In this document: positions 3,289 through 60,883 of the stretch, piece by piece
Layout of the letters: each line of letters starts with the position of its first letter
Position numbering within the stretch: position 1 is the stretch's first letter
IMG/VR virus record: IMGVR_UViG_3300027810_000002
Span: 1-64,000 of that record
Strand: one strand, 5' to 3'
From: a virus
Length of the DNA: 64,000 nucleotides
The notes under the pieces: model-generated
Told to the model about the DNA's origin: nothing
Seen by the model: only the letters and a program-made list of their open reading frames with translations
The model's database searches: none
Made by a program: the position numbers and the translations under genes

Positions 3289-3326
3289 ATTAATTTTGTT
3301 TTTATTTTTATTATATATCTTTTATA

Positions 3327-4118: not shown

Positions 4119-4137
4119 ATAAATCTATATATCTATA

Positions 4138-13976: not shown

Positions 13977-14016
13977 TTTAAATTGTTTTTGTTTATTTGT
14001 TAATCTATATATCTAT

Positions 14017-23156: not shown

Positions 23157-23720
23157 TTATTTTACTTTTGCTGTTGCTAAATATCCTTGGATTTCAGTGT
23201 ATTGAGATCTGAACTTAGTTTCACCAACAACTGATCCCATTGTGAAAGAAACAAATGTTCCTTCTGGTTTTTTCATAGCTGATTTATATAGAGCAACTGC
23301 TTCTTCTTGTGTTGCAAAAACCCCAAGAATCTTTTTATTAGTTGTAGATCCAAATCTAGCACCGCCTTCTAATCTAACCTCTTGACCGTTAAAGCTTACT
23401 TTATTATTAGCCATTACTAGATATTTAGTTTCTCCTTTTGCTGGAGCTTCTGATGAAAACTGTTCGTATTCACTTGTAGTAAAATAGTAAGAGCTCATTG
23501 ATTCGTTTAACGCTGGGTTGCTTTCATTTAAGAAAGATTCTAATCCTTTAATGTGTTTCATTATTTTCTTTTTCTTTTTATATTCTTCTTCAGCGTCTCC
23601 ACTACCTGCTGGAACATCTCCTGATCCAACTTGCGTTGCTGTTGGTAATAAAGTTGCTCCCATACCTCCAATACTTGCTGGAGTTATATTTTCATCTATA
23701 TCGTTTTTTCTGATATGCAT
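23157..23720 (-). CDS. Putative internal head protein
   Basis: Internal MKHIKGLESFLNE (ATG at 23561) followed by LNE sites. Confidence 0.6.
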   Translation of the reverse strand: MHIRKNDIDENITPASIGGMGATLLPTATQVGSGDVPAGSGDAEEEYKKKKKIMKHIKGLESFLNESNPALNESMSSYYFTTSEYEQFSSEAPAKGETKYLVMANNKVSFNGQEVRLEGGARFGSTTNKKILGVFATQEEAVALYKSAMKKPEGTFVSFTMGSVVGETKFRSQYTEIQGYLATAKVK

Positions 23721-23722
23721 GA

Positions 23723-24151
23723 TTAATATGTTGGAGTTTCTATTATCTTCAACTTAACAAGTTCAGCAATAAATTCTCTGAATTTCATTTTAATAGCTCT
23801 ACTAATAATAGTTTTATCACCTTCTACAAGATCACCGCCGTCAAAGTAATATGACTTGCCATTGTTTGCTGCTGTCTCTATAACGTTACCCAGCATAAAA
23901 TCAGAAGGACATCTTCTCGCTCCTGATAATGTTTTTACAACATCTTTTCCCCATGAAGATAAACCCATTTGTTCAGATACCTGACTATCATATCTAATTG
24001 GATTTCCAGGTAATGCTTGAACAGCGTCGCCTTCTGGTGTTCCATCAACGGCATAATGATATGCAAGAATAGCGTTAGCTAATGCTTCATCTCTGCCAGC
24101 TTTTAATCTTGCTTCGTTAACAAACTGTTCAAATAATTGTAAGTGTTTCAT
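23723..24151 (-). CDS. Putative internal head protein
   Basis: N-terminus MKHLQLFEQFVNEA. Confidence 0.65.
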   Translation of the reverse strand: MKHLQLFEQFVNEARLKAGRDEALANAILAYHYAVDGTPEGDAVQALPGNPIRYDSQVSEQMGLSSWGKDVVKTLSGARRCPSDFMLGNVIETAANNGKSYYFDGGDLVEGDKTIISRAIKMKFREFIAELVKLKIIETPTY

Positions 24152-24170
24152 TTTAGTTTTCTTTTATTGT

Positions 24171-27100
24171 TTACCAGGCGTAATCAAATTTCTTGATTTT
24201 ACCTACTTTATCTTTAATTTCTTTAGCGTAATTCTGAGACTCTTTTTCAGCATAACTAGATGTGTATTTCTCTGCTTTAGCTTGTTCAGCTTGTTTAGTG
24301 TAATCAACGTATCTGCTATAATCATCTAATATCTGAGACATATGATTAGATGCGTCTCTCATTTTAGCTTCTCTACCCTTAGAATTTCTTCCAATAATAA
24401 TATCTCCGTATCTTCCTTTTTCATTTTTAGCTAAACCATCTTTAATTTGAGCGGTTAATGCATCAATTGAATCTGCAACCATTTTATCTAATGGTAATTT
24501 AGAAGCTTTAGTTGCTAATATTTCTTGGTACCTTGCTTTGTTTGCTTTTTTGAAGTCTTGATCGCTTTCGAATGCAACTGCACCGGCTTTTTGATCAACT
24601 CTTCTTTTAACATCTTCTGCTGAAGATTTAGTAGGATTATTTAAACTGAATGCAATTGCTCTATCTGCTAAATCTGCGGCTCTTTTAATTGAAGAAACTC
24701 CAGTTGCATCATAACCTTTATATGCTTTGTTTCCACCAACTGCCATTCTATCATCTCCACCTTTTAAAGTTTTAGTGTTCTTCTTTGCTCTAAATCCAGT
24801 TTTTTCATATTGAACTCCTAAGAAATCTTTTCCTCTTGTTAACGCTAATATTCCTGGAGCAACTTGACCTGTTCCGAATGGATTATGTTTTGCATTATCT
24901 ACTACGTAAAATACAACAGCTTCTCTATTGTTAGCATACGCTTTATAAGCTTCTTTAGGTGTCATGTCGATTAAATCTTCGTCTCCGATTTGATCTAACT
25001 TCATTTTAGTTAATTGATAAAATGCTTTAGGTAATTGAACATCGTTCTTACCCCATCCCATCGCATCTGACATAGTTAATAAGTTTCTTAACTTAGAAGA
25101 TTTAAATGCTTCGTTAATTACTGATTCCTTTACGAAATTCTTAAGATCATCTGGATCTATAGAGTATTCTACTTCATCAGCATCGCTCCAAAGAATAACT
25201 TCATCTTTACCAATTTCGTAAATTTCGAATGATGAGTTTTTTAAGATTTCAGATCCATCAACGTCGTTAGTTTTATCATAAACATCTCCATCAAAATCAT
25301 CGCTATCGCTTTTGGCTTTAATATATTGTCCTTTTTTAAATTTAGCTTCGTTAATTACTGATTCAGCGACGATAGTATCGTAATGTACCTCTTGAACATC
25401 ACCATTATAATCAGCATAAACATCAATAGACCATTCTTTACCATTATCATCTTTACCTAACCAGAATTGATCTTGTCCTTCGTTACCGTGATCATCAATA
25501 ACATCTTCGTAATCAAATTCTACTTTATGTAATTTGCTACCTACTTTAAATTCAACGTAAGGCCATTCTTTCTTAATAACTTTAGCTGATTTAGCTTCAA
25601 TAACTAAAGATTCGGATTCATTTAAAGAGTTTATAAAATCTCCGAATGATTCGTAAATAAATTTTGTTTTCATATTTGTGTTTGTATTTTCATTTAAATC
25701 TAATGACCATCCATATTCTACGTATGATATTGCTTCATCTGGATTTACTTTATGTTTTTTAGCTACTTTTAATACTACATCTCTTGTTATTTGAGAATTT
25801 GGAAGTTTAGCAATTGCTTTATCAAACCCTGAAGGAACCCATATTTCTGGATTCTCATTGGTTGCTTCCTGTAATTTCATTTCTAGAGGCTTTGTATTTG
25901 TAGGCTCTTTTTCGTTTATTGTAATTGAAGCTAGTGCTCTATTACCGAATTTACTTAAAGAAATACCTTCTTCTGATACATTAAAATATCTAGTATTGTT
26001 CTTAGCCCATCTTTTACCATTAGTTGATAATTCTTTTAAAATATCATTGAATTCATCTTGTGTGATTTTACCATCACCAATAGCTTCTAACATTTTATTA
26101 CGTACATTTGCACGTTTACCTACAGTAAGTGCTGGATGATTTTCAGTATATCTTCTTTTAAGAGTTATTTTAGATTCATCTAATCTTTTATTAGTACTGT
26201 CTTTAGATAAAATTACTTTAAAGTTTTTACCTTTTAAATCAGTTGTTGCAACTGACCAACTTCCTGTTGCTGCGTTTCTTACAACTAAAACATCTCCTTC
26301 TTTGCGAATAAAATAAGATCCTCCTGCATATTCTCCAGTTGCTCTAGGATCTACTCCTTCTTTATCTTCAATATCTAAATCAAATGAATGTGGTTCAGTT
26401 CCTGGAGTTACATTAAATTTTAAACCGTCTTTCTTAGAATCTTCTTTAGTCCATTCGTCAGCAACTTGCTGTGCGATTTTCTCAGTTTGTTTTTTATTTA
26501 AAGTTATATCAAGTCTCATAAGCCTAGACTCATTATAACTTGCGATGTCAGAGTAATTAATTTCATGCTCTTCACCGTCTTGATCTAATGCAAAAATAGA
26601 TTTATCATTCCACATTGCATCATTTTCATCATTACCATTATCATAAGCATATATGATATATTCCTCACCATTAGCTAATTGAATAATACCATCATCGGCT
26701 TTCATAGCTTTCATTAACTTCTTCTTGTCGAATTTAGCTTCATTAACTACTGATTCAAATACACTAACTGCGACGTTAGTAGATTTTAAATAGCTTTTTA
26801 ATTCCATTCCCATTGCATCTGCTACCAGTTTCATTTCTGGTTCACTCATGTAAGTTGAAGTTCTAACTTCATAACCATTTTTACCTTTTTTAGCTATTTT
26901 CTTAATAGCTTTAATGCTGTTACCTGTTGCTTCTTCAAATTTCGTTGGAAATTCATACTTAAAGTCTGACATGTTGCCGTCATACGCTTCATTAGCCATT
27001 TCACCGTATAAAGATTCAACCCACTCTACTGAGTCTGCTGTTTTCTTAATCTTAGCACCGAACTGCTTAAAAAAATCTTTAGTAAAAGATTCAATATCCT

Positions 27101-27197
27101 TTGAGTCGTTTGCTAATTGATGAATATCTGACATTGTTCCTTCTAATAGAGAAGCATAGTCTTTTTTATTTTCTGATAAAAATGATTTAAAATTCAT
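24171..27197 (-). CDS. Putative virion-packaged polyprotein (1008 aa) with repeated protease-site linkers
   Basis: N-terminus MNFKSFLSE; internal ESVVNEA, ESLVIEA, ESVINEA x2 and several LNE/INE/LDE sites; late motif at 27232-27239. Confidence 0.65.
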   Translation of the reverse strand: MNFKSFLSENKKDYASLLEGTMSDIHQLANDSKDIESFTKDFFKQFGAKIKKTADSVEWVESLYGEMANEAYDGNMSDFKYEFPTKFEEATGNSIKAIKKIAKKGKNGYEVRTSTYMSEPEMKLVADAMGMELKSYLKSTNVAVSVFESVVNEAKFDKKKLMKAMKADDGIIQLANGEEYIIYAYDNGNDENDAMWNDKSIFALDQDGEEHEINYSDIASYNESRLMRLDITLNKKQTEKIAQQVADEWTKEDSKKDGLKFNVTPGTEPHSFDLDIEDKEGVDPRATGEYAGGSYFIRKEGDVLVVRNAATGSWSVATTDLKGKNFKVILSKDSTNKRLDESKITLKRRYTENHPALTVGKRANVRNKMLEAIGDGKITQDEFNDILKELSTNGKRWAKNNTRYFNVSEEGISLSKFGNRALASITINEKEPTNTKPLEMKLQEATNENPEIWVPSGFDKAIAKLPNSQITRDVVLKVAKKHKVNPDEAISYVEYGWSLDLNENTNTNMKTKFIYESFGDFINSLNESESLVIEAKSAKVIKKEWPYVEFKVGSKLHKVEFDYEDVIDDHGNEGQDQFWLGKDDNGKEWSIDVYADYNGDVQEVHYDTIVAESVINEAKFKKGQYIKAKSDSDDFDGDVYDKTNDVDGSEILKNSSFEIYEIGKDEVILWSDADEVEYSIDPDDLKNFVKESVINEAFKSSKLRNLLTMSDAMGWGKNDVQLPKAFYQLTKMKLDQIGDEDLIDMTPKEAYKAYANNREAVVFYVVDNAKHNPFGTGQVAPGILALTRGKDFLGVQYEKTGFRAKKNTKTLKGGDDRMAVGGNKAYKGYDATGVSSIKRAADLADRAIAFSLNNPTKSSAEDVKRRVDQKAGAVAFESDQDFKKANKARYQEILATKASKLPLDKMVADSIDALTAQIKDGLAKNEKGRYGDIIIGRNSKGREAKMRDASNHMSQILDDYSRYVDYTKQAEQAKAEKYTSSYAEKESQNYAKEIKDKVGKIKKFDYAW
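25108..26760 (-). repeat. Dispersed 20-bp repeat encoding ESV[VI]NEA in the 1008-aa gene
   Basis: gcttcgttaattactgattc identical at 25108-25127 and 25345-25364; variants at 25594-25613 and 26737-26756. Confidence 0.85.
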
Positions 27198-27230
27198 GTT
27201 TAGTATTTTGTTTTATTCTATATTATAAGA

Positions 27231-29120
27231 TTATATATCTTGGTTATTTATGAATTGTTCAAAGGTCATCATGCTGTTATCTAATTCGATTGATTCTGAA
27301 ACCAAGTCCATTGATTTTTCAAGTTCAGACTTTAAAGTGCCATACATTCCATGAATAGCCTTTGGCGTCATTTTCTTAAAAGTCTTTTCGTCTCCGTCTA
27401 TCATCGCATTTCTAACTTGAGTTGCTGAGATATTGTCATCTGTTCTTGGAATTTCAAATAATCCAAAGTCAGATCTTACGTTTAATTGATCTCTATATGA
27501 ATCATTATTAACTTGATATCCATAACCTTTTAATCTATCTGTTCCAGTTCCCCATAAGGTTGGCTCATACTTAGGTCTTAGTGCATTGAATATAGTATCG
27601 ATTCCTCCAGTCGGTATAATAAGAATTTCTTTTAGAAACTTATATTGCTTTTTAACATTGTTAAACATTTTAATTTGTAAGTCCGAATCGTATGGTTTTG
27701 AAAATTCATCTCCTTTTTTACGTTTTGGATTTTTAGATTTAACTAAAAGCACTACTACTGGAAATCCATTCTCTTTATGAATAGCCTCTAATACTTTGGC
27801 ATGACCTAATGTAAATGGTTGGAATCTACCAACAAACATATTTACTTGCTCTTTACCTTGTTCAGCGTGTTTTACGTTTAATGCCTCATTTAAGCTTACT
27901 GATGTTTTAATCTTATTGTGCATCATAAAATTATTGTAATCATATATTGAATTCTCATCTGTATTTTCAACGAACACTAATTCGTTTATTTTATCAACCA
28001 CGCTATTTAACTGCAAGACCATATCATCATTAATTATATCTGTTGCTTTAGTCTTTTGCTTTCTAAATGTTCCGATTGTTATTTTAAATAGAGAAGATAA
28101 AACTTCGTTTGATACGTGTGTTAGTGTTTTATCGTTCTTGATGAAATTTGTATTTAACTTAAAAGAACTTGAATTTGAAAACTCTGCGTTATCAAAGTTA
28201 ACTCCAATATATCTCGAAGCATTCTTAGAAATATAGTCATTAAATACTACTGACATTAATTCTAAATATCTGCGATTTGCATCTTCTTCATTTAATTGAA
28301 TTTCTTTAAAGTCATATGTTGTAAAGTGCTCTAGTATATCTGCTATCGCGATTTGATACATGTGAGAACTTTCTCTTTTTTCACTTATATTAGTTTTTGT
28401 AAAATCTTCTAATTTAAATGAAGTTATCTTTTTTCCTTCTGAGAAGTTTAAAACCAATCCTTCAATTTCTTGTTCTAAATCATGTTGTAAAACAGTAGAG
28501 TTTGAGCTTGGATTAAATATCTTATATATTTCTTTTGTAAAGCTTGTTTCAGCTTCAGTTTCAATATCATAATCAAATGACTCTGAAAATTCTTTGTCAT
28601 TCATCTCTAATAATTTGATTAATCTATCAACCTGTACTTGGTCTAACACTCCATCAAAAATAACTTCTTGTTTTTGAGTGTCTAATACTTTAGCCCACTT
28701 AGATATAATCGCCGGATCTATTATAGTCTTTTTAACTTTATTAGATTCGCTCATATGTTGAACGTGAGTTAGTATTAAATTATTGGTTGGTACTTTATCA
28801 TATGATATTGAAGATACGTTTGTTTCTGGTAAATATTCAAATCCAAATCTATAATCAGATGGTAGCTCTTCTTTGCTTTCTGGATTTAAACTTTGAATAT
28901 GTTTAATAGCAACTTCATATAATGACATTATAGTTCTATCAATGATTGTAAGAGGATTTCCATTCGAAGATTTATAATATTCAAATTTATCATTTACTCT
29001 CCTAACATAAAATGATGGAGCTGAGATTTTCTCAACTACCATTACTCTATTTTTTAATAGCCTTTGGAACTCGTTAGCATTTGCTGATTGAAAATGCTCT
29101 CTTAATTTTTGTAATGCCAT
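27231..29120 (-). CDS. Degenerate ligase-like N-terminal domain fused to a cytidylyltransferase/NMNAT-like domain
   Basis: C-domain VGRFQPFTLGH ... GTDR ... ISATQVR; N-domain VVEKISA and EIEGLVL resemble nucleotidyltransferase motifs I and IV; C-terminal MMTFEQFIN. Confidence 0.7.
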   Translation of the reverse strand: MALQKLREHFQSANANEFQRLLKNRVMVVEKISAPSFYVRRVNDKFEYYKSSNGNPLTIIDRTIMSLYEVAIKHIQSLNPESKEELPSDYRFGFEYLPETNVSSISYDKVPTNNLILTHVQHMSESNKVKKTIIDPAIISKWAKVLDTQKQEVIFDGVLDQVQVDRLIKLLEMNDKEFSESFDYDIETEAETSFTKEIYKIFNPSSNSTVLQHDLEQEIEGLVLNFSEGKKITSFKLEDFTKTNISEKRESSHMYQIAIADILEHFTTYDFKEIQLNEEDANRRYLELMSVVFNDYISKNASRYIGVNFDNAEFSNSSSFKLNTNFIKNDKTLTHVSNEVLSSLFKITIGTFRKQKTKATDIINDDMVLQLNSVVDKINELVFVENTDENSIYDYNNFMMHNKIKTSVSLNEALNVKHAEQGKEQVNMFVGRFQPFTLGHAKVLEAIHKENGFPVVVLLVKSKNPKRKKGDEFSKPYDSDLQIKMFNNVKKQYKFLKEILIIPTGGIDTIFNALRPKYEPTLWGTGTDRLKGYGYQVNNDSYRDQLNVRSDFGLFEIPRTDDNISATQVRNAMIDGDEKTFKKMTPKAIHGMYGTLKSELEKSMDLVSESIELDNSMMTFEQFINNQDI

Positions 29121-29149
29121 ATTTTTTTATTAATTTTCTTAATTATTGA

Positions 29150-29863
29150 TTATGCAAATGCTTCAATATCCCACTGGATTCTCTGCATCGGATCTTCTCC
29201 TCTAAAGTTCTTCTTTACCCAATCAATAAGTCCATTTTCGTTTTTAGCATTTTGTGCCATATCAAAAGCATTGAATGCTCCTCCGTTTGCTGCCATGTCT
29301 TCTAACCACTGATCATATTTCTTTTGATTCCATTTAACCTTCTTAGCGGCCTTCTTATGTGGACCATCTCCTAATTTAGAAGTAGCTGCATCATAAGAAC
29401 CTGGAAGAAATACTCCAGTTGTTCCTTTACCATATCCGATTTGCTTTCTAAACCTTCTTAGTGAATAATTAGCAATATCGATTTGCTTTTTTGTAGAAAC
29501 TTCTCCTTGCTTTTTACCAAGCTCTCTTTTCATTTCTTCAGCAGTTTTTTCGTCAGTTTCAAAATGCAGTGCTTTTGTTAAATCTGCAATATTATCAAAT
29601 TTACCTTCAGTAATCACTGATTCACTAAATAATCTCTTACCTGTTTTATCTTCTAAATGTATAAGTGCTTTAGGATATTTTTCTTGCATTACATTAAATG
29701 TAGCAGGAGCAACTTCTGGAGTACTTACAGGTTCTTGATGGATAACTTTACCATCTTGTACAACTACAATAACAGCAGGATAACTTCCTTGCTTTGCTGT
29801 TTTATGTACTTTACCTTTATTAGCCTCAGCTATAAAACTTTCAAATAATTTTACTTTTTTCAT
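29150..29863 (-). CDS. Putative internal head protein, two modules
   Basis: MKKVKLFESFIAEA N-terminus; internal ESVITEG linker at 29604-29623. Confidence 0.65.
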   Translation of the reverse strand: MKKVKLFESFIAEANKGKVHKTAKQGSYPAVIVVVQDGKVIHQEPVSTPEVAPATFNVMQEKYPKALIHLEDKTGKRLFSESVITEGKFDNIADLTKALHFETDEKTAEEMKRELGKKQGEVSTKKQIDIANYSLRRFRKQIGYGKGTTGVFLPGSYDAATSKLGDGPHKKAAKKVKWNQKKYDQWLEDMAANGGAFNAFDMAQNAKNENGLIDWVKKNFRGEDPMQRIQWDIEAFA

Positions 29864-29870
29864 AATATAT

Positions 29871-31160
29871 TTATCCTCCGTATTTTATGATACCCATTAG
29901 CTGGTTGATTGCTGCAAAAGTACCTGTTAGTTTCATTGTTTTTCCTTTATATACAAATACAATACCTTCAGTTGGTATAATTGATTCAACACCTCCGATT
30001 CGATCTAATCTTTCTAACTCTGAAATTACTTTATTAACTTGAGCAACTTCTCCACCCTTTTTAATTTTGTCAGCTTCAGTTCTAATTTGATTATGTAGTC
30101 TTTGCATTTCAGCGTCTGGATTAGCTGCAACAAAATTACTTGCATTTTTAAGAATGATAGATCCTAGTTCTAAGAAAAGGTCTTCAAACGGTCTAATGTT
30201 TTCTTTTTGTTTTACTTTAATATCTTCTTTATCAAATTTCTTTATAGCGGCTGCTTCGTCTTTACCAATCTCTTTTGCAAGTGATCTCATATTTAACGTC
30301 TTTTTGTCGCCATAGGCCCATCTTAATAATAAACCTTCTTTATAGTCTTGTTGTAAATCTGGAAAACTTGTATCAATTGTTTCTCTCCACCACATTTCGT
30401 GATATTTAGAAACTTGATCAGAGTCTGCTAATTTATATTTGTTCTTTAGATCTTCTACTTTCTTAATAAATTTAGCTTTATTCTTTTCAAAATCTAAATC
30501 TTTTCCTAATTTAATAATTTGCGGTGGGATAACTGTAAATGTTTTACCAACATTAATTTTAAGATCTTTCATTGCTTTCGCTATTGATCTTGCTGGTTTG
30601 TTATCATCTCCTATAATGTTTCCTTCTCCGTCTGTTTTCTTAATACCATGAAATTGAATAACATCACGATCATAATAAATTACATTTGGATTCTTAGAGT
30701 AAATTAACTCCATGTTCATCCAGTTTTTACCATTATCGAAAACTTCTAAATCTTTAGGGGATAATTTATTTAGCGAGTTTGCTAAGTCTTCTGCTGCGAA
30801 TTGAAAAGTATCTTGTACTAATTTACTTGGATGTCCTTCGAACTTTTGACTAAACGTAGCAAGATCCATTGGATTCTTTAATTCACCTTTATTTCTAGCA
30901 AATTTAACCTCTCCATCTTGTACTGTTGCAAATACGTTTTGGCCATCTGTTTTTTCAGTTGCTTCTTCCTCAAAGTTTAGTTCACCTTGTAAACCTGCCT
31001 CGATAATTTTCTTAAAATCTCCGAATGTTAAATCTTTTTCATCAAATGGATGGGACATGTGTCCTGCTGCTCCACCTTCTAAAATTAACTGAGAATCTTC
31101 TAATAATTCTTGATTTGTCCTTTCGACTAAAAAGTCTTGAAATGATAATAGTTTTTTCAT
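29871..31160 (-). CDS. RNA-ligase-like nucleotidyltransferase-fold protein with a capsid-targeting propeptide
   Basis: MKKLLSFQDFLVE...LILE/GGAAGHMSHPF; motif I TEKTDG, EGIVF (motif IV), KLTG (motif V). Confidence 0.65.
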   Translation of the reverse strand: MKKLLSFQDFLVERTNQELLEDSQLILEGGAAGHMSHPFDEKDLTFGDFKKIIEAGLQGELNFEEEATEKTDGQNVFATVQDGEVKFARNKGELKNPMDLATFSQKFEGHPSKLVQDTFQFAAEDLANSLNKLSPKDLEVFDNGKNWMNMELIYSKNPNVIYYDRDVIQFHGIKKTDGEGNIIGDDNKPARSIAKAMKDLKINVGKTFTVIPPQIIKLGKDLDFEKNKAKFIKKVEDLKNKYKLADSDQVSKYHEMWWRETIDTSFPDLQQDYKEGLLLRWAYGDKKTLNMRSLAKEIGKDEAAAIKKFDKEDIKVKQKENIRPFEDLFLELGSIILKNASNFVAANPDAEMQRLHNQIRTEADKIKKGGEVAQVNKVISELERLDRIGGVESIIPTEGIVFVYKGKTMKLTGTFAAINQLMGIIKYGG

Positions 31161-31164
31161 ATTG

Positions 31165-31467
31165 TTATTTTGACCAAGGATGATTCTTAGCCACCATTTT
31201 TTTAAAGTTAATAAGTCCTAAAACATCTCTGTCCTTTAAATCATGATGCAATCTGTAATCGTCGTGATTATATCGCCAATGAGCTTCTTTAGAACCCTTT
31301 CTGTGACCATATGTGACATCATCTTTTTTATCGTAAATTATTACGTTATCTGGGTGAAGTTCCTTGTATGACTCTTTAAACTTGTCGAAGGTATACCCTA
31401 CGACCTCATTATAAGTCCTGAATATTCCTTCACTAACAAATTGTTCGTATAATTTAATATGTTTCAT
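31165..31467 (-). CDS. Putative internal head protein
   Basis: MKHIKLYEQFVSEG. Confidence 0.65.
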   Translation of the reverse strand: MKHIKLYEQFVSEGIFRTYNEVVGYTFDKFKESYKELHPDNVIIYDKKDDVTYGHRKGSKEAHWRYNHDDYRLHHDLKDRDVLGLINFKKMVAKNHPWSK

Positions 31468-31470
31468 CGT

Positions 31471-31791
31471 TTAATAATTTTTATGTCCTCCATTGATTCT
31501 TTCAATCTCATCATATTCTCTTCTAGAATAATTAGATGAGTCTCCGGAAATACTAATACCAGAACTTCCACCGTAAGTCATTCCAGCTTTCATTAATTTT
31601 TCATCAATGTCTTCTGCAATATAGTCAGGTGCGTCGCTACCTATAATAATATCAATTTCATTCCATTTAGTAACTAACATTACTGTAAATGGATATTTTG
31701 ATTTACTTAATATTTTAACTACTTTGTCAAAATATTTTTTATCTACTTTTGCTTCGTTTACGAATTGTTCAAATAATCTAATATGCTGCAT
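31471..31791 (-). CDS. Putative internal head protein
   Basis: MQHIRLFEQFVNEA. Confidence 0.65.
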   Translation of the reverse strand: MQHIRLFEQFVNEAKVDKKYFDKVVKILSKSKYPFTVMLVTKWNEIDIIIGSDAPDYIAEDIDEKLMKAGMTYGGSSGISISGDSSNYSRREYDEIERINGGHKNY

Positions 31792-31792
31792 C

Positions 31793-32443
31793 TTATTTAT
31801 TCATTATATCTTTTAAAGTGTCAGCCATGCCTCTACCAAAAGAATAGCTTGAGTTTTGTAATCCAATTGTATCATAATTTGTACCAGTACTGTAGTTAAT
31901 CATAACTCCACCGTCTGATGAGTTATACTGATCTAATACAAACATTAATTCGTAAATCTCTTGAAACATTTTATCTTTAACGGATTTATTAATTCCTCCA
32001 CCGCATGTAACTGCGATTAAATAAGAATTATTACCATTGCTAAAGTTTGCTCTACCATCAATAGTACCACCTACTGTAGATCTCATTGTTCCAGAATATC
32101 CACCAGCAGCTCCTGTTGAAGATTGTTCAACTTCATTTTTCTTATATTTCTTAATTACCTTAGAAATCTTCTCTGCTAATTGATATGCGTTTCTTCCTTG
32201 AAATACATCATAAGAATCTTGTTCGATATCTCCTTGAACATTTAGATGTTCTTTGTAGTTTGGTAATTTACCGGATTTTGCAGATGCTTCCGCTTTTGCT
32301 AATACTTTTTCGTATGAACTTCCCCATTTTTCAACAGCGATCTTTGCGATTCTAACTTTATCTTCTAATTTAGCTTTAATACCTTTTTTATCAAAAGATA
32401 CTGCTTCATTTATAAAAGATTCAAATAATTTTACTGGTTTCAT
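31793..32443 (-). CDS. Putative internal head protein
   Basis: MKPVKLFESFINEA. Confidence 0.65.
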   Translation of the reverse strand: MKPVKLFESFINEAVSFDKKGIKAKLEDKVRIAKIAVEKWGSSYEKVLAKAEASAKSGKLPNYKEHLNVQGDIEQDSYDVFQGRNAYQLAEKISKVIKKYKKNEVEQSSTGAAGGYSGTMRSTVGGTIDGRANFSNGNNSYLIAVTCGGGINKSVKDKMFQEIYELMFVLDQYNSSDGGVMINYSTGTNYDTIGLQNSSYSFGRGMADTLKDIMNK

Positions 32444-32460
32444 TGTTTTTATATTTTAAT

Positions 32461-33306
32461 TTATGATATGTCCATTGCGTCATCATGATCACATACAATA
32501 CCTTTTTTAGCTATTTGTTTACATAAAGCATCTAGCTCATCAGTTTCGTATGTTGATGGAACTTTATCTGTTATTTTAATAGATTTTAGAAAGGCTTGTA
32601 CTTCGTCTAATCCGAATTTAACCCTATGACCTACATTTGATGTTTTTGCAACATCATATAAATACGCTCCATAAAATCTACCACGCTGTTCTGTGTATGT
32701 AAAATTAATTCCTTTAACTCTGAAAGGTTCGTTTTGAGCAGATATTGCCTTTGCTTCGCTTACGAATTGTTCAAATAATTGTACGTGTTTCATTGTATAT
32801 TCACTTTTTTCTATTTTATTATATATCTCACTCATACTCAACATATCTTTAATACTATTGATAAATGCATCAGCAGGAACCCTATGACCTCCGTCATATA
32901 CTGTATGATTAAAAGATACTTTATTGTCTTTAAAGTATTTTCTTACTTCTTTTCCGCTAACGACTGAATCGCTCTTGCCAAATCTTATTTCTATTTTAGT
33001 CTTTTTTAAATCAGAATCATCTACGACTGGATCGAATGTTCTACCAACCATTGCTGGATTAAATAACAACACTGGGATTGAAAGCTTGCTTCCAATTAAA
33101 TAAGAAACATATCCTCCCATTGAAGATCCTACAATAAGATCTGGATTTAATGATTTAATATCTTTGTATAATTTATCAAAAGTACTATCATCTCTATAGT
33201 TTATTGATGGCATATAAGCCTTGTCAAAGTTTTCATTTAAAAATATAATCTTTGGGTCTTTTTGATCAATACTAGATTCTAAACCATGTAAATACGCTAT
33301 CTTCAT
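32461..33306 (-). CDS. YqiA-like alpha/beta hydrolase fused in frame to a capsid-targeted module
   Basis: YLHGLES, nucleophile elbow GSSMGG, SDSVV, GGH; then internal MKHVQLFEQFVSEA (ATG at 32793). Confidence 0.75.
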   Translation of the reverse strand: MKIAYLHGLESSIDQKDPKIIFLNENFDKAYMPSINYRDDSTFDKLYKDIKSLNPDLIVGSSMGGYVSYLIGSKLSIPVLLFNPAMVGRTFDPVVDDSDLKKTKIEIRFGKSDSVVSGKEVRKYFKDNKVSFNHTVYDGGHRVPADAFINSIKDMLSMSEIYNKIEKSEYTMKHVQLFEQFVSEAKAISAQNEPFRVKGINFTYTEQRGRFYGAYLYDVAKTSNVGHRVKFGLDEVQAFLKSIKITDKVPSTYETDELDALCKQIAKKGIVCDHDDAMDIS

Positions 33307-33321
33307 CTTTATCTTTATCTT

Positions 33322-33383
33322 ATTTGTTATATGTAAATATAAACAAAAAAAATGACATAAAAAAATATTATGCCACTTATTTT
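33322..33383 (-). promoter_or_regulatory. Terminator plus early promoter cassette, copy 3
   Basis: TGGCATAA...TTATGTCA hairpin, T-run, TGTTTATATTTACATATAACAAAT. Confidence 0.68.
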
Positions 33384-33391
33384 GATTTATT

Positions 33392-33985
33392 TTAAGTTTT
33401 AGGTCTTCCTAATAATATCTTATCGTGCATTTTGCCTCCAAGTTTTCTAGAATACCAGCCATTTCCAGGTGATCCTTCTTTTAAACCTATCCAATCTACT
33501 TTTTTACCTAATACCTTTTCAACAGTTTCTAGATCTGAAACTAAAGGTACATTATATGAATCTAATAAGATCTCTGCGATCCTACCTGAAACTTCAATGT
33601 AAAAACCTAACTTATTAAGATCTCTTCCTCTAGCAGCGATGTATTCTCTTTTTGCTGCGGAAGTACCATCATGACCTACTCCTGAATATTTTACTCCGAA
33701 TTTGGTTTTTTTACCAAACATTATCATATCGAAATCTTCATCTCCGTGAAGGTCTAGACCTTCCCAATAATTCCAATCTGGATCTCCAAAAACATCGTCT
33801 GGCGATTTAATCTTTGCATGTCCACCTATTACAGAATATGCAGTAGATATTAACTCAAAGAATTCCCCAGCAAGCTCTGGATATTTTTTATGGTTAAACT
33901 TAGTAATTTTACCTCTCTTAGGTTTAATTAATTCACCACTAGTTTTTTCATTGATAAATTCTTCGTATAACTTTATATGTCTCAT
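33392..33985 (-). CDS. Putative internal head protein
   Basis: Likely start MRHIKLYEEFINEK at 33985; the track start at 34006 lies in a hairpin. Confidence 0.65.
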   Translation of the reverse strand: MRHIKLYEEFINEKTSGELIKPKRGKITKFNHKKYPELAGEFFELISTAYSVIGGHAKIKSPDDVFGDPDWNYWEGLDLHGDEDFDMIMFGKKTKFGVKYSGVGHDGTSAAKREYIAARGRDLNKLGFYIEVSGRIAEILLDSYNVPLVSDLETVEKVLGKKVDWIGLKEGSPGNGWYSRKLGGKMHDKILLGRPKT

Positions 33986-34001
33986 CTTGATATATTGTAA
34001 A

Positions 34002-34033
34002 AGCATGACCTTGAAAAATCTAGGCCATGCTTA
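34002..34033 (-). terminator. Hairpin/terminator after the 746-aa gene
   Basis: AAGCATGGCCT...AGGTCATGCTT inverted repeat followed by TT. Confidence 0.5.
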
Positions 34034-34041
34034 ACTTATTT

Positions 34042-36282
34042 TTATCCTAATGAAGATGTTAACATCCCAACGGCTGCTCCGTAATCTCCATCAGATTTTG
34101 ATAAGATTCCGTCTACAATTTCTTGTCCTTTAGCTTCGTCAAAATCATCTCCGAATGCTTTCTTTAAAATCGTGAATGCATATTCTTGAAATTCTTCGTC
34201 AGATTTAATTTCTGCTTCGTTAACTACTGATTCTTTAATACCGAATTCTTTAGCTAACATAGTTTGTACGTCTCCAACGTTTGCACCAGATATTTCCATA
34301 CCTTCCGTGTCGTTTGCTGCGAAATCTTCAGGTTGAGCGTATACAAATTTAAGTAATAAATCTTCGACGTCGTTTATGTCTTTTTTATTTTTATTGTAAA
34401 CATCTTTTAATTCTTTCATAGTAACTGAAAGACCTAAGGCACCGTGCTCATCAGAATCAATATCTAATTGAAATAATTCTTTAGCTTCGTTAACTACTGA
34501 TTCTTTAACAAATATTGCTTCTTTATCACTATATCCAGGTTCTAATGAAAGTCCGTGTTTTTTCATTAATGATTTATATTTATCAACGTTATTAATAAAT
34601 TCAATAGCAACGTCATCCATATCGCTTGGATCTGTATTTAGAAATCCTGTATAATCATCGTGTTTTTTATCAAATTGATAGTCTTTAGAAATCATTGCTA
34701 AGAACGCATTAACTTCTGATTTACCTTCAGTAACTACTGCTTCATTGTATAAATGAACATAGTTGCTTCCTTTTTTAGAATAAACTGATTCGATTTTAAA
34801 AGATCCGTCATTTTTACCGGCGTAATGTGCTCTAAAGAATAAATTATTATCAAGCTCTCCAAAGAAATGAGATAGTTTACCGATAAAGAATTCAGCGTTT
34901 GGATAAAGCTCTAAAACTTCTTCTTTTGTTTTCGCGTTTAAAACATCTCTATTAAAATCTTTTACGAATTTAGCTTCAGTAACTACTGATTCAAATGCTG
35001 GAACTAATCCTGAACCTTGGTAAAGATCTGCCATCATCCATTTTTTAGATTTTTCATCCCATAAGTATACGAATTCTGCTCCACCGTCTCTATCTGCGTC
35101 TTTTAAATAATTATCTATATTTTTAATAGATCCGGTAGTGTTTGCAGTACCGTCATTATAAAAGTTGATTTTAGAAATATCTGTAGATAAACCGCTATTA
35201 GCTCCTTTGCTAAGTACATCGTCTACATTTTTACCGTTTTTAAAAGATTTCTTAATAATTGGTAACATGTTGTCTGGGTAAGAATCATAATGAGTATATA
35301 CTGAAGTAATATTTCCAGCCTTGTCTATTTTACCAAATTGACCTCTTGTTCCTTCGTTAAGAACCGTAGATTCATTAACTGTTACTGGGTACATTTTACC
35401 GTTAAATTCAAATTCTTCTAAATCTTCTTCAATCGCTTTAGCTCTTGCTCCTAAAAATGCATTACGCTCTTCTAGTTTAGTAGTTTCATCAGTAACTGTA
35501 ATTAGTTCAACTTCATTTGATTCGTTTAGTTTAGAATCTAAATCAATTCTAACATCTTCTCCTTCGAATGCTTGGTTAAACTGATTGACTGCAGCTTGTC
35601 CCATTCCTTCTTGTTTAATCTGCTCTAAGTAAAGTGCAGTTCCTTCAACAATTCCTTGACCTCCCCAGCCAGCAGCATTTGCTATGTCTGAATAATATTT
35701 GTCTAATATAGTTTTAATTGTTGCAGGTCCAATTTTAATAAAGTGACCTCCTAATCCGGCCATTTTAATTTCTAAAGGTTTAATGTTTCCTTTAATCATT
35801 TTAGAAACTGGTAGTGCTTCTCTATGGAAGTTTGCATCAACCATCGCTTCGTGCATTAAATACTTAATACATCCTAAAATAGATTCACTAGACATTGCTC
35901 CTAAATCTACTAATACTTTGTTAAATATTTTATTATATACAGTTACAACTTTCTTAGCGTCTCTTTTACCTTCAACTTTAATAGCTTCAGTAATTTCTTC
36001 AACTTCTTCTTCATCACTAACAACAGGCACATCATCTTCTGATTCTGAATTATCTGATTCTTCTTCAGAAATTTCTCCAAATAATTGTGAAATTATAGCT
36101 GTTTTTTGTTCTTCGTCTAATCCTTCTAGTGAAGTGATTTCCATTGAATCTAATATAGATGCAATTTTTGTGGATAGTTCTTCTCTTTTAGTGTTGTTTT
36201 CTACTGCTAACTTAATTGTTGCTTCATGTGCTAACACATCTGAGAAAGACTTAAAAGATTTGATTTTATTCATTTCTGCCAT
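34042..36282 (-). CDS. Putative virion-packaged polyprotein (746 aa) with repeated protease-site linkers
   Basis: N-terminus KIKSFKSF; linkers ESTVLNEG, ESVVTEA, EAVVTEG, ESVVNEA x2; late motif at 36317-36324. Confidence 0.65.
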   Translation of the reverse strand: MAEMNKIKSFKSFSDVLAHEATIKLAVENNTKREELSTKIASILDSMEITSLEGLDEEQKTAIISQLFGEISEEESDNSESEDDVPVVSDEEEVEEITEAIKVEGKRDAKKVVTVYNKIFNKVLVDLGAMSSESILGCIKYLMHEAMVDANFHREALPVSKMIKGNIKPLEIKMAGLGGHFIKIGPATIKTILDKYYSDIANAAGWGGQGIVEGTALYLEQIKQEGMGQAAVNQFNQAFEGEDVRIDLDSKLNESNEVELITVTDETTKLEERNAFLGARAKAIEEDLEEFEFNGKMYPVTVNESTVLNEGTRGQFGKIDKAGNITSVYTHYDSYPDNMLPIIKKSFKNGKNVDDVLSKGANSGLSTDISKINFYNDGTANTTGSIKNIDNYLKDADRDGGAEFVYLWDEKSKKWMMADLYQGSGLVPAFESVVTEAKFVKDFNRDVLNAKTKEEVLELYPNAEFFIGKLSHFFGELDNNLFFRAHYAGKNDGSFKIESVYSKKGSNYVHLYNEAVVTEGKSEVNAFLAMISKDYQFDKKHDDYTGFLNTDPSDMDDVAIEFINNVDKYKSLMKKHGLSLEPGYSDKEAIFVKESVVNEAKELFQLDIDSDEHGALGLSVTMKELKDVYNKNKKDINDVEDLLLKFVYAQPEDFAANDTEGMEISGANVGDVQTMLAKEFGIKESVVNEAEIKSDEEFQEYAFTILKKAFGDDFDEAKGQEIVDGILSKSDGDYGAAVGMLTSSLG
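34214..34996 (-). repeat. Dispersed 20-32 bp repeat encoding E[SA]VV[NT]E[AG] in the 746-aa gene
   Basis: gcttcgttaactactgattctttaa identical at 34214 and 34484; variants at 34724 and 34973. Confidence 0.85.
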
Positions 36283-36324
36283 TTTATTAAATTTATTTTA
36301 TGTTTTACTTGTTTAATATATATC

Positions 36325-40655: not shown

Positions 40656-40844
40656 CTATATATCGAAATTATATAGAGCACCTTCCTCGTCAACAAAGTT
40701 CTTACCATCTGCTGATATACTAAGCCCGGCTTTCTCTAATATCTCTAAGCTTTCTTTTTTTGTTATTCGGTCAGTTGAGACCATCATGTCTAAAGTACGT
40801 TTTAAATCCATAAGGTTGTGGGATCCTATTTTATTGTTTTGCAT
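40656..40844 (-). CDS. Hypothetical protein
   Basis: 62-aa ORF with an A-rich leader. Confidence 0.5.
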   Translation of the reverse strand: MQNNKIGSHNLMDLKRTLDMMVSTDRITKKESLEILEKAGLSISADGKNFVDEEGALYNFDI

Positions 40845-41940: not shown

Positions 41941-41953
41941 ATAAGTATATATC

Positions 41954-55168: not shown

Positions 55169-55232
55169 TCCTGATGCCTCTTTTTAGTTAAATTATATAT
55201 CATAATTTTAAGAGGGACCTGATCGGGTATAT

Positions 55233-58912: not shown

Positions 58913-60883
58913 TTATCTTATAATTTCAAGTTCGAATGTCTTGTTTATTTCGTCAACGCAAACTAATTCGATATATGGCTTATTGCTTAATAGATCTGTT
59001 TCGTTGATCGTATTTGTTAATTTCCAGTTACCTTTTTTACCTACGAATATATTAATTTTATTGTTATCCATGTGATCAATTGAAGTTTTAAAAGTTAATT
59101 TAATAACTTGTCCTACTTTAACTGGAATAACACTATCATCTAAGTATATATCTAAATCTCTTACAAAGTCCTCGTCTTCGGTATATACTCTAATTAAATT
59201 ATCATATCTTTTTATTCTTGTCCAAATACCTGTGATATCCGCTTCTTGTGGATTCCATGCAAGATCTTTGTCTATTTTAACCTCAACTCCTTCGCTTACT
59301 AAATCATAGATATGCGCTTGATTAAGACTATATCCGTTGTTTACGTTTTGTATCTTTATTTTCTGAGGATTACTCTTATCTATTAAGATTCCGTTTCCTG
59401 CAGATATGACATCTGTGTTATATTGAATAGATGTTGGTATCTTCCCGTTAATAACTTGATTTAATCTATCGTTCGTCTTAGATATAATATCTAAAATAGA
59501 ACCAGCGTTTTTAAAGTTAAGTGAAGCGTCTTCTATAGATTGCTCTAATGCTATAACTTTAGCTGAAATAGAACTTTGATCAACCGAAGTCATCATTAAG
59601 TTTTCTAATTCATCAAGCCTGTCAGACATGATATTAAATCTATGACTTGCTTCTGCTAATATTTTAGCAGCGTTCTCTAAAGAACTTGTAGTATCAAAGA
59701 ATAAATCCATTGAGAATGTAGTAAAGTCATTGATGTTTGTTTCAATACCTACATTATCTAAAGAAGAATTAAATTTAACATTTAATTTTAGTGCAAATGC
59801 ATTACCATTTAAACCTGTTACTTCGTTTGGTTTGTATTTACTTAATTCCGGTAAGTACCATCCAGTACTATTCGGATCATTTTTAAAGTTATCTAATAAT
59901 ATAACTCCGTATAGGTTTGTTGTTCTGTTACCAGGGTTAGATTTAGAATATACATCATAGTATACTAAGATCGCATTAAATCTAAAGTCTCCACCTCTTT
60001 TTGAATAATCTTGAACTGTGTTAAGCTTTGCATCACCTTCAATAGCAGCATATGTTATTGGGCTCCATTCAATACCGTAATTATAGGTTGAATTTGGATC
60101 AATATCTATCGTACCGTTATTTGAATCTGCTAAAGACCCTAAGTCTATGTTAGCATCTGGATGTGCTTGTCCGTCTCTTCCGTTAATAAAAGAACCTGGT
60201 TCATATGACGTAGCAGTCGTGTTATAGCTTGAGTTTTTAAATAAAACAGTTGGAGTATATCCAGCCGAAGTTGGCACATTAATAAAGACTTCATTATAAG
60301 TATCACCATTATAATTTTTGTCATTAGTAACATCTACGTTTCCTAAGTATCTAACTACTTGACTATATTCTGATCCACTTTGTATTGAATCATCCTCTTC
60401 TACTACTCTATTATATCCTGACGCAGCTTCCTGTGAATTAGCTGGTCTTGTTCTAAATGCTCCAATTTCGTTTAACCACTTAAAAAAGATCTTTTCAGCA
60501 TCAGAAGAATATATTGAATTATCAAAATCGTCGTCTGTTAGTATAAAGTTTTCTAAGTTAAGGGCGTAGTTTTGGAACGTGTTGGCAAAATGACGGTTTG
60601 CATTATCGTCCGGGCTGTCTCCGTCGTAATTTGGTGCAATACCAGGTACTCCGTTAACAGGGGCCACTGGGCCACCTTCGAATAAATTATTAAATTGTAT
60701 GTAATTGTTTGTTGCTCCACCAGAAGGCTCGTCAACAACTGGTAAATCTAATAACGCGAATTTTGAATACTCAAAAACAATATCTGGATTATAATATGCA
60801 CGCGTTAAATCTCTAGCGGCGCTAGAGAAAGCATACATGGTACCTCCCTGTTCTTGAGGAATTCTAATTAATGGTGTAGCCAT
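58913..60883 (-). CDS. Virion structural protein
   Basis: 656-aa ORF in the structural operon. Confidence 0.55.
   Translation of the reverse strand: MATPLIRIPQEQGGTMYAFSSAARDLTRAYYNPDIVFEYSKFALLDLPVVDEPSGGATNNYIQFNNLFEGGPVAPVNGVPGIAPNYDGDSPDDNANRHFANTFQNYALNLENFILTDDDFDNSIYSSDAEKIFFKWLNEIGAFRTRPANSQEAASGYNRVVEEDDSIQSGSEYSQVVRYLGNVDVTNDKNYNGDTYNEVFINVPTSAGYTPTVLFKNSSYNTTATSYEPGSFINGRDGQAHPDANIDLGSLADSNNGTIDIDPNSTYNYGIEWSPITYAAIEGDAKLNTVQDYSKRGGDFRFNAILVYYDVYSKSNPGNRTTNLYGVILLDNFKNDPNSTGWYLPELSKYKPNEVTGLNGNAFALKLNVKFNSSLDNVGIETNINDFTTFSMDLFFDTTSSLENAAKILAEASHRFNIMSDRLDELENLMMTSVDQSSISAKVIALEQSIEDASLNFKNAGSILDIISKTNDRLNQVINGKIPTSIQYNTDVISAGNGILIDKSNPQKIKIQNVNNGYSLNQAHIYDLVSEGVEVKIDKDLAWNPQEADITGIWTRIKRYDNLIRVYTEDEDFVRDLDIYLDDSVIPVKVGQVIKLTFKTSIDHMDNNKINIFVGKKGNWKLTNTINETDLLSNKPYIELVCVDEINKTFELEIIR

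Follow-up and report, generated by a model that had tools for sequence, protein, structure and literature searches.

Among the described systems closest to the locus studied here are the internal proteins of T4-type phages. In T4, a capsid-targeting sequence of ten residues, which ends in F-I-A-E and is cut once by the head protease (PMC8442874; PMC5694885), carries any fused protein into the head (PMC8442874). That is, the N-terminal tag of an internal protein is sufficient to package whatever is fused to it and is removed by the gp21-type protease (PMC8442874, PMC5694885); proteases of this gp21/S77 class all cut after Glu within a short motif (PMC5694885). The T4-type cargo bodies are mutually unrelated, come in more than 30 variants, are shuffled via conserved flanks in dedicated loci and are injected for defence-related roles (PMC2839356, PMC3012670). 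In the PeSL cassettes of T4-type phages, conserved short linkers guide the insertion, deletion and exchange of orphan genes (PMC2839356). In the phages phiKZ, 201phi2-1 and SPN3US, a related protease processes many internal head proteins by cutting after Glu, some of them more than once, and paralogues share conserved N-terminal propeptides (PMC5694885, PMC10052503). Finally, polyvalent proteins (Iyer et al. 2017, PMC5512222) combine unrelated domains in one chain, and they are predicted to accompany the DNA and to be set free by proteolysis. Here, we study an island of 12 genes within the first 64 kb (the window) of the 175-kb IMG/VR record IMGVR_UViG_3300027810_000002, in which the proteins P0001, P0002 and P0003 consist of modules connected by a repeated linker (in the following: joint).

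The source is a T4-like marine jumbo phage from a large uncultured lineage; the record has about 32% G+C and an estimated completeness of 66%. In the best-supported reading, to which we assign a probability of roughly 0.7, the island proteins are targeted to the head and cut by the prohead protease. The island would thus be a set of head-targeted cargo genes, whose unit is a small, independently folding module behind a signal ending in [LIV]-x-E. This signal would take two forms, i.e., an N-terminal amphipathic tag of 13 residues as counterpart of the T4 capsid-targeting sequence and, internally, a shortened joint E-S-V-[VI]-[NT]-E|A (the bar marks the predicted cut). The tag would bring the protein into the assembling prohead core, where an S77 (gp21-type) protease would cut behind each Glu, frequently at paired sites with a spacing of five residues. 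Thereby, the tag would be removed, and modules of about 6 to 43 kDa (57-381 residues) would be released and stay in the head with the DNA.

The joint and the N-terminal tag

We scanned all six frames of the window for the joint pattern E-[SA]-x?-[VLI]-[VIL]-[NTI]-E-[AG]. This yields ten copies, all on the minus strand (four in P0001, five in P0002 of which one is loose, one in P0003), and none on either strand outside these three proteins. Within the predicted proteome of the 175-kb record (54,503 residues), only 0.035 copies are expected, and 300 shuffles gave 0.04 copies on average and at most 1. The linker coordinates of the original prediction equal those of our scan plus 1, and the spacings it reported (237, 249, 270, 240, 249 and 378 bp) are exact. 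Its conserved DNA repeat is recovered as a 21-nucleotide (nt) core, GAA TCA GTA GTT AMY GAA GCW, whose pairwise identity averages 84% within the window. The modules in between, stated to share no obvious similarity, indeed show none within this genome, given that the best BLASTP E-value of 0.018 is not significant.

Each joint is a double site, in which a first protease-type site, [FVKL]-x-E|S, is followed at a distance of five residues by a second, V-[VI]-[NT]-E|A. The joint is also present, with varying copy number, in homologous loci on more than 20 IMG/VR contigs, and the composition of 74 non-redundant copies is E-S-[V50 L10 F8]-[V48 I24]-[N38 T25]-E-[A53 S15 G6].

The N-terminal tag, M-K-H-[VI]-K-L-F-E-x-F-[VI]-x-E, spans 13 residues and has the same ending as the joint (F-[VI]-x-E; in P0003 F-I-A-E). 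Nine strict tags are found in the 175-kb record, compared to 0.14 expected; seven of them are located in the island between 23.7 and 34 kb, and one is internal and in frame. A literature search with the tag peptides returned nothing relevant. In total, 12/12 genes of the roughly 13-kb island (23157-36282) carry a joint, an N-terminal tag or a looser form of either. The weakest member is P0004, the sole signal of which is a loose S-L-N-E|A site.

We also investigated a module boundary independently of the joint search pattern, namely the start of F1, the last module of P0001, in the 150 best of 652 HMMER representatives of P0001. The F1 start is covered in 77 of these. There, the preceding residue is always E (77/77), P3 is always L, I or V (77/77) and P1' is mostly A (66/77). 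This [LIV]-x-E is kept at 31-97% identity, both in fused and in standalone proteins. Standalone F1 proteins (325-350 residues) show an N-terminal tag and then a second site directly before the module. Beside this, F1 has a conserved [DN]-Y-A-W at its very C-terminus (24174-25109; P0125-P0272), is invariably the last module of a polyprotein and is the commonest cassette among the 652 representative clusters matched by P0001 (E<=0.001).

These data bear on the idea that joints are not cut at all but form flexible spacers of beads-on-a-string multidomain proteins, with their DNA acting as in-frame recombination site. Such spacers would fit the low-confidence linkers between modelled domains as well as the codon-level conservation of the joint and the exact recombination junctions inside it, both reported below. 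They would not explain why P1 Glu and P3 L/I/V are invariant in 77/77 homologues that have diverged beyond DNA similarity, among them standalone proteins that need no recombination partner. Furthermore, substitutions within the joint are conservative in protein terms (V/I/L/F; N/T/S; A/S/G), and the motif fits the specificity class of the lineage's own protease (PMC5694885). We consider uncut joints improbable. Two other readings were dropped, namely internal translation starts at the joints, which contain no Met, and 2A-like skipping, since there is no N-P-G-P.

Many internal sites in relatives still have the whole tag upstream. This suggests that the joints were once the N-terminal tags of separate genes, with polyproteins arising by fusion of tagged genes.

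Concerning structure, the modules had been expected not to fold as one continuous domain, which agrees with the AlphaFold2 model of P0002 (predicted template modelling score 0.35). It consists of separate, confident domains, and the predicted local distance difference test (pLDDT) drops below 50 at residues 303-308, 434-439, 576-618 and 684-689, i.e., at 4/5 strict joints. Further dips are observed at 243-262 and at 73-93, the latter just ahead of a degenerate joint (residues 95-99).

Cassette exchange at the joints

Next, we compared module content and order between related loci. To this end, modules were clustered into families after trimming the joints, because untrimmed single-linkage clustering merges everything into one family via the joints that all modules share. 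Cassettes are exchanged among related phages with breakpoints at the joints. The gain, loss and reordering of cassettes with breakpoints at the repeat, put forward as a check of the original prediction, are all found in IMG/VR relatives, and so is cassette transfer. Across dozens of related metagenomic phages, the modules reappear with changed order and neighbours.

For P0002, the module order is F16-F10-F5-F2-F6-F3, while relatives of this type show F16-F10-F5-u, F22-F2-F6-F23, F14-F2-u-F3 and u-u-F2-F3 (u denotes an unclustered module); F5 is also located in a different protein. P0001 is ordered F8-F19-F20-F9-F1, with F8-F19-F1, F8-F9-F24-F12 and u-F9-F20-u-u-F15 among its relatives. For the F9 cassette, all 255 nt are identical to locus L049. 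This match sets in at the codon preceding the left joint and stops within the right one, and the neighbouring L049 modules are unrelated. The order is F20-F9 in this phage vs. F9-F20 in L049, and both architectures are confirmed in independent samples (L050, L051, P0125). Assembly chimeras were dropped as an explanation, since the same architectures recur in independent samples (L049, L050, L051; L008, L040). Beyond the polyproteins, more than 120 shorter marine proteins contain the same modules in further combinations, including a single module behind a tag.

We then assessed where internal homology between polyproteins ends. Here, 190/459 ends are at most 8 residues from a strict joint vs. 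33 expected (maximum of 53 in 1000 trials), where the ends are not independent and some loci are close relatives.

The codon choice within the joint is position-specific beyond codon bias. The first Val is encoded by GTA in 49/50 cases, the second by GTT in 41/48, Thr by ACT in 23/25 and Ser by TCA in 50/70 (compared to 22% in flanking codons). Since joint copies are partly related by descent, respective binomial P values are overstated, while the pattern is clear. The simplest reading of such position-specific codons is that joints were repeatedly copied through recombination. The roughly 20 nt of joint DNA are a homology patch for in-frame insertion, deletion, reordering and transfer of cassettes between phages. 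The junctions consist of simple sequence identity inside the coding joint, and the exchange looks like homologous recombination over this common DNA; for T4-type recombination, a homology of less than 50 bp is sufficient (PMC2839356). The proposed integron-like nature holds as a loose analogy only. In-frame cassette exchange is found, but neither an integrase nor an attC-like site was seen; a family search with the 12 genes of the island gave no integrase match, and this search did not extend to the rest of the genome.

A farther-reaching interpretation is a cargo system resembling exon shuffling, in which one and the same sequence serves as targeting remnant, protease site and recombination site, such that effectors are packed, cut, injected and traded as a rapidly evolving anti-defence arsenal. 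We regard this as tentative, i.e., as possible rather than probable.

Proposed link to the phage head and module content

The record breaks inside its T4-type portal gene such that the phage's own head module (tagged core gene, protease, capsid gene) lies beyond the contig end, and no Peptidase_S77 is found in this record. Relatives show a T4-type head module of Portal_T4, Peptidase_S77 and Gp23 (order gp20, gp21, gp23 in L158). Peptidase_S77 is present in G001, G002, G004 and G005 as well as in L153 and L158, where it adjoins portals 93-97% identical to that of the window. The relatives' capsid protein matches T4 gp23 in the PDB (E 6e-7).

We find the tag at the start of the gene between portal and protease in each of 42 related loci. 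Its short form (111-122 residues) consists of the tag and an acidic module, and the middle form (213-215 residues) has one extra cassette directly behind the tag. Long forms comprise about 790 residues (838-amino-acid (aa) open frame, L153) and at least 1315 residues with ten joints (L155); both adjoin portals with 97% identity to the window's portal. The L155 polyprotein includes both P0003 modules (92% and 81% identity), about 750 residues apart, as well as a relative of the first P0001 module. Thus, head operon and island share cassettes. Together with the S77 protease of the lineage, the [LIV]-x-E before F1 and the T4-like tags, this sharing indirectly favours the original assignment of the linker as a putative prohead-protease site. 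T4 itself shows cleavage contexts of the joint type, i.e., F-L-T-E|A (gp23), L-R-E|S (gp24) and L-I-A-E|A (gp22).

Three side observations concern these head proteins. In the L155 polyprotein (L155:11618-15562), one module starts with a hydrophobic stretch (residues ~178-200) that looks like a membrane-spanning segment. The S77 protease is fused to an extension of about 480 residues (L067:4769-6973; L158:12320-14401), which has an acidic stretch, repeated I-x-Y-[ST]-E-H-[VL]-A-E-K-L-D units and many [ILV]-A-E sites and is probably the scaffold protein fused to the protease. A complex prediction of this protease-scaffold with the small tagged core protein scored 0.00, which speaks neither for nor against binding. 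Finally, a conserved M-A-N-L-[IL]-N-E-[AS]-E-I-R, which agrees with the site type, opens the gp23-type capsid proteins of 41 clade members as well as of the 462-kb phage LR756500.1 (L071-L150; L152:20001-21623).

In T4, the slot between portal and protease holds genes 67 and 68, which encode prohead core proteins. This positional counterpart raises the possibility that the targeted and cut proteins are core or scaffold components (like T4 gp67, gp68 and gp22), which would occupy the core or give it order, instead of host effectors. In line with this, the conserved module of the slot gene is strongly acidic, as is gp67, the N-terminal part of P0002 contains an acidic low-complexity stretch, and no module matched any known effector family. 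On the other hand, the modules fold into domains of about 80 to 380 residues, modelled with high confidence, and are not short peptides that could escape through capsid pores, some tagged proteins have enzyme domains (ATP-grasp, nucleotidyltransferase, hydrolase), and the content is hypervariable and horizontally exchanged, which is unusual for parts critical for assembly. A pure core or scaffold role appears unlikely to us.

Searches for module identity were mostly negative. Against Pfam, PHROG and NCBIfam, no family matched the modules except an unannotated PHROG at P0002 residues 311-420. The models of F1 (pLDDT 83.7) and P0002 found no PDB match at E 0.001 or better, and F1 found none in BFVD. 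A wide VIA fold search returned generic helical bundles only (Z up to 9.9 on residues 178-312), and the ESM Atlas provided no usable match. When searching 50,697 phage records via tblastn, nothing was found for P0001 and P0002; the same holds for the 216-aa open reading frame (ORF) in the phage collection. Neither tags nor joints occur in the first 50 kb of Tenacibaculum phage PTm1 or in the capsid region of LR756500.1, and no cultured relative with a virion proteome was found.

An ATP-dependent protease is encoded at 116786-118762 of the record (L003:12786-14762; phrog_4871, E 8e-245). Given this enzyme and the location of the island among replication genes, joints could also be cut in the cytoplasm by a phage Lon-like or a host protease, which would make the polyprotein a co-expression device without packaging. 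Still, the same signal tags single-module proteins, for which co-expression gives no reason, the tag resembles the T4 targeting sequence, and the head operon of close relatives holds a polyprotein with shared cassettes. Furthermore, Lon-type proteases degrade their substrates and do not cut at defined sites. Cytoplasmic cutting is thus very improbable.

Several points weigh against head targeting and cutting by the prohead protease. The surroundings of the island are replication genes (helicase, primase) and no head genes; the ip genes of T4 likewise lie outside its head gene cluster. The phage's own protease, capsid protein and portal-adjacent gene are outside the record. The capsid N-terminal L-[IL]-N-E was considered as proof of specificity and rejected, since it aligns with the start of the T4 gp23 propeptide and not with E65|A66; the misaligned L-I-N-E|A thus provides no confirmation of the protease specificity. 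Seven conserved residues with fixed codons exceed the needs of a three-residue protease site, such that another constraint acts on the joint. One P0002 joint (residues 514-519) is modelled inside a helix. Finally, isoelectric points (pI) of the modules range from 4.1 to 9.5 with most being acidic or neutral (pI 4.1-6.4), in contrast to the highly basic T4 internal proteins (PMC8442874).

A further connection between cargo and structural genes is the promoter-like motif GATATATA. It is strongly strand-biased (24:1 in this record, 32:1 in the relative G001, L062-L070). In G001, it starts about 30-51 nt upstream of the portal, protease, capsid, sheath-like and tube-like genes, and it is also found before P0001, P0002 and several other tagged genes. 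This suggests that cargo genes are co-expressed with structural genes via this putative promoter, which is probably the lineage's late promoter, i.e., the counterpart of the T4 late promoter TATAAATA. Other sites in the window are 3312-3319, 4126-4133, 14006-14013, 32820-32827, 40657-40664, 41946-41953, 55194-55201, 59145-59152 and 61584-61591. Outside the island, tagged proteins include those encoded at 82781-83812 (L001:18781-19812) and 85019-85483 (L002:1019-1483) of the record, both with the motif upstream; one has an ATP-grasp ligase domain and one a DUF5824 domain.

Feature coordinates are collected in Table 1. Within the 281-aa ORF, the internal tag is complete with Met, and the GATATATA copy at 32820-32827 lies 27 nt upstream of this Met; the gene may have two products or be a fusion caught mid-process. 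The true start of the 204-aa ORF is probably at 33985. The nucleotidyltransferase domain of P0004 shows a weak, below-cut-off likeness to nicotinamide-nucleotide adenylyltransferases, and P0004 is possibly an enzyme cassette or cargo.

Table 1. Positions of island genes, joints, cassettes and further features in the 64-kb window.
Feature	Position	Strand	Remark
T4-type portal gene (gp20), 5' part, cut by contig start	1..949	-	Pfam Portal_T4 at 2-949, E 8.6e-31
Two-module 187-aa ORF	23157..23720	-	double [L]-N-E|S site, residues 66 and 73 (23502-23543)
142-aa ORF, 13-residue N-terminal tag	23723..24151	-	
P0001, 1008-aa polyprotein	24171..27197	-	short tag-like N-terminus, then five modules (residues 10-153, 154-534, 535-617, 618-696, 697-1008)
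Module F1, 312 residues, C-terminal in P0001	24174..25109	-	most widespread cassette; also standalone tagged protein
P0001 joint 4 (residues 691-697)	25107..25127	-	right recombination junction of transferred cassette
79-residue cassette F9 with its joints (255 nt)	25110..25364	-	DNA 100% identical to L049
P0001 joint 3 (residues 612-618)	25344..25364	-	left recombination junction of transferred cassette
P0001 joint 2 (residues 529-535)	25593..25613	-	motif scan
P0001 joint 1 (residues 148-154)	26736..26756	-	motif scan
P0004, 629-aa ORF	27231..29120	-	412-residue part without assignment, S-L-N-E|A (27885-27896), nucleotidyltransferase domain
GATATATA promoter-like motif	27232..27239	-	starts 42 nt before P0001 start codon
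P0003, 237-aa ORF	29150..29863	-	tag (29825-29863), 73-residue module, joint (29603-29623), 151-residue module
429-aa ORF, variant N-terminal tag (31122-31160)	29871..31160	-	
Tagged 100-aa ORF	31165..31467	-	
Tagged 106-aa ORF	31471..31791	-	
Tagged 216-aa ORF	31793..32443	-	
281-aa ORF	32461..33306	-	YqiA/UPF0227-like hydrolase domain, in-frame internal tag (32755-32793), 97-residue module
204-aa ORF, tag at residues 8-20 (33947-33985)	33392..34006	-	
P0002, 746-aa polyprotein, seven modules	34042..36282	-	module bounds: residues 1-99, 100-310, 311-436, 437-519, 520-599, 600-689, 690-746
P0002 joint (residues 684-690)	34213..34233	-	motif scan
P0002 joint (residues 594-600)	34483..34503	-	motif scan
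P0002 joint (residues 514-520)	34723..34743	-	motif scan
P0002 joint (residues 431-437)	34972..34992	-	motif scan
P0002 loose 8-residue joint (residues 304-311)	35350..35373	-	motif scan
P0002 degenerate joint E-E-I-T-E|A (residues 95-99)	35986..36000	-	rearrangement breakpoint vs. L008 and L040
GATATATA promoter-like motif	36317..36324	-	starts 42 nt before P0002 start codon

Comparison with known systems

If the proposed steps are true, phages of this lineage would have a mechanism to exchange protein-sized units in frame. The cutting site would protect function, because each module is released whatever its neighbours are, and its DNA would also supply the homology for exchange. The module pool is large and almost none of it is annotated, which makes it a defined place to seek proteins that are injected to counter defences or to take over the host. 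For engineered phage cargo, tag and joint could also provide a device for packaging and release.

Polyvalent proteins are similar in that several unrelated domains reside in one polypeptide. They differ by their recognisable conflict domains and usually contain their own peptidase, mostly zincin-like. Here, a uniform, repeated, predicted prohead-protease site bounds every module, there is no embedded peptidase, and Pfam found no conflict domains such as MPTase, ART or ParB-like ones in P0001, P0002, P0003 or the L155 polyprotein. In the phiKZ-type systems, the cleavage motif is [AGS]-x-E and mainly long N-terminal propeptides are removed, while P3 is L, I or V in our case; a repeated joint between unrelated modules with exchange at the sites is not described for them in the literature searched.

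With respect to exchange, PeSL cassettes are non-coding, regulatory and located between genes, whereas the exchange observed here takes place inside reading frames and keeps the frame. Integrons require an integrase and attC, neither of which was seen in the island. T4 gp67 and gp68 are comparable in that they are small and acidic, are processed at [LIV]-x-E and have their genes between portal and protease. Whereas each T4 gene is fixed and has a single module, the slot of this lineage takes up cassettes, with lengths between 111 and at least 1315 residues.

The likeness to T4 internal proteins comprises the short N-terminal tag ending in [LI]-x-E before a small residue. No module showed homology to the internal-protein families IPI, IPII and IPIII in Pfam, PHROG or NCBIfam, which is not strictly defining because T-even internal proteins are mutually unrelated. 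Differences are that most modules here are not basic and that T4 has one gene and one tag per cargo, with intergenic promoter/stem-loop elements for shuffling, while the polyproteins here join several cargoes in one reading frame, with chains of up to at least 1315 residues, and recombination takes place at the coding joint itself. Thus, the principle, i.e., a tag, gp21-type cleavage, variable cargo and exchange through conserved flanks, is already known from T-even internal proteins. Multi-cassette polyproteins in which one coding sequence is both cutting and in-frame recombination site are not described in the literature searched. If the inferred steps hold, the principle of T4 internal proteins, which is realised with single tagged genes, would be extended to modular polyproteins in this lineage.

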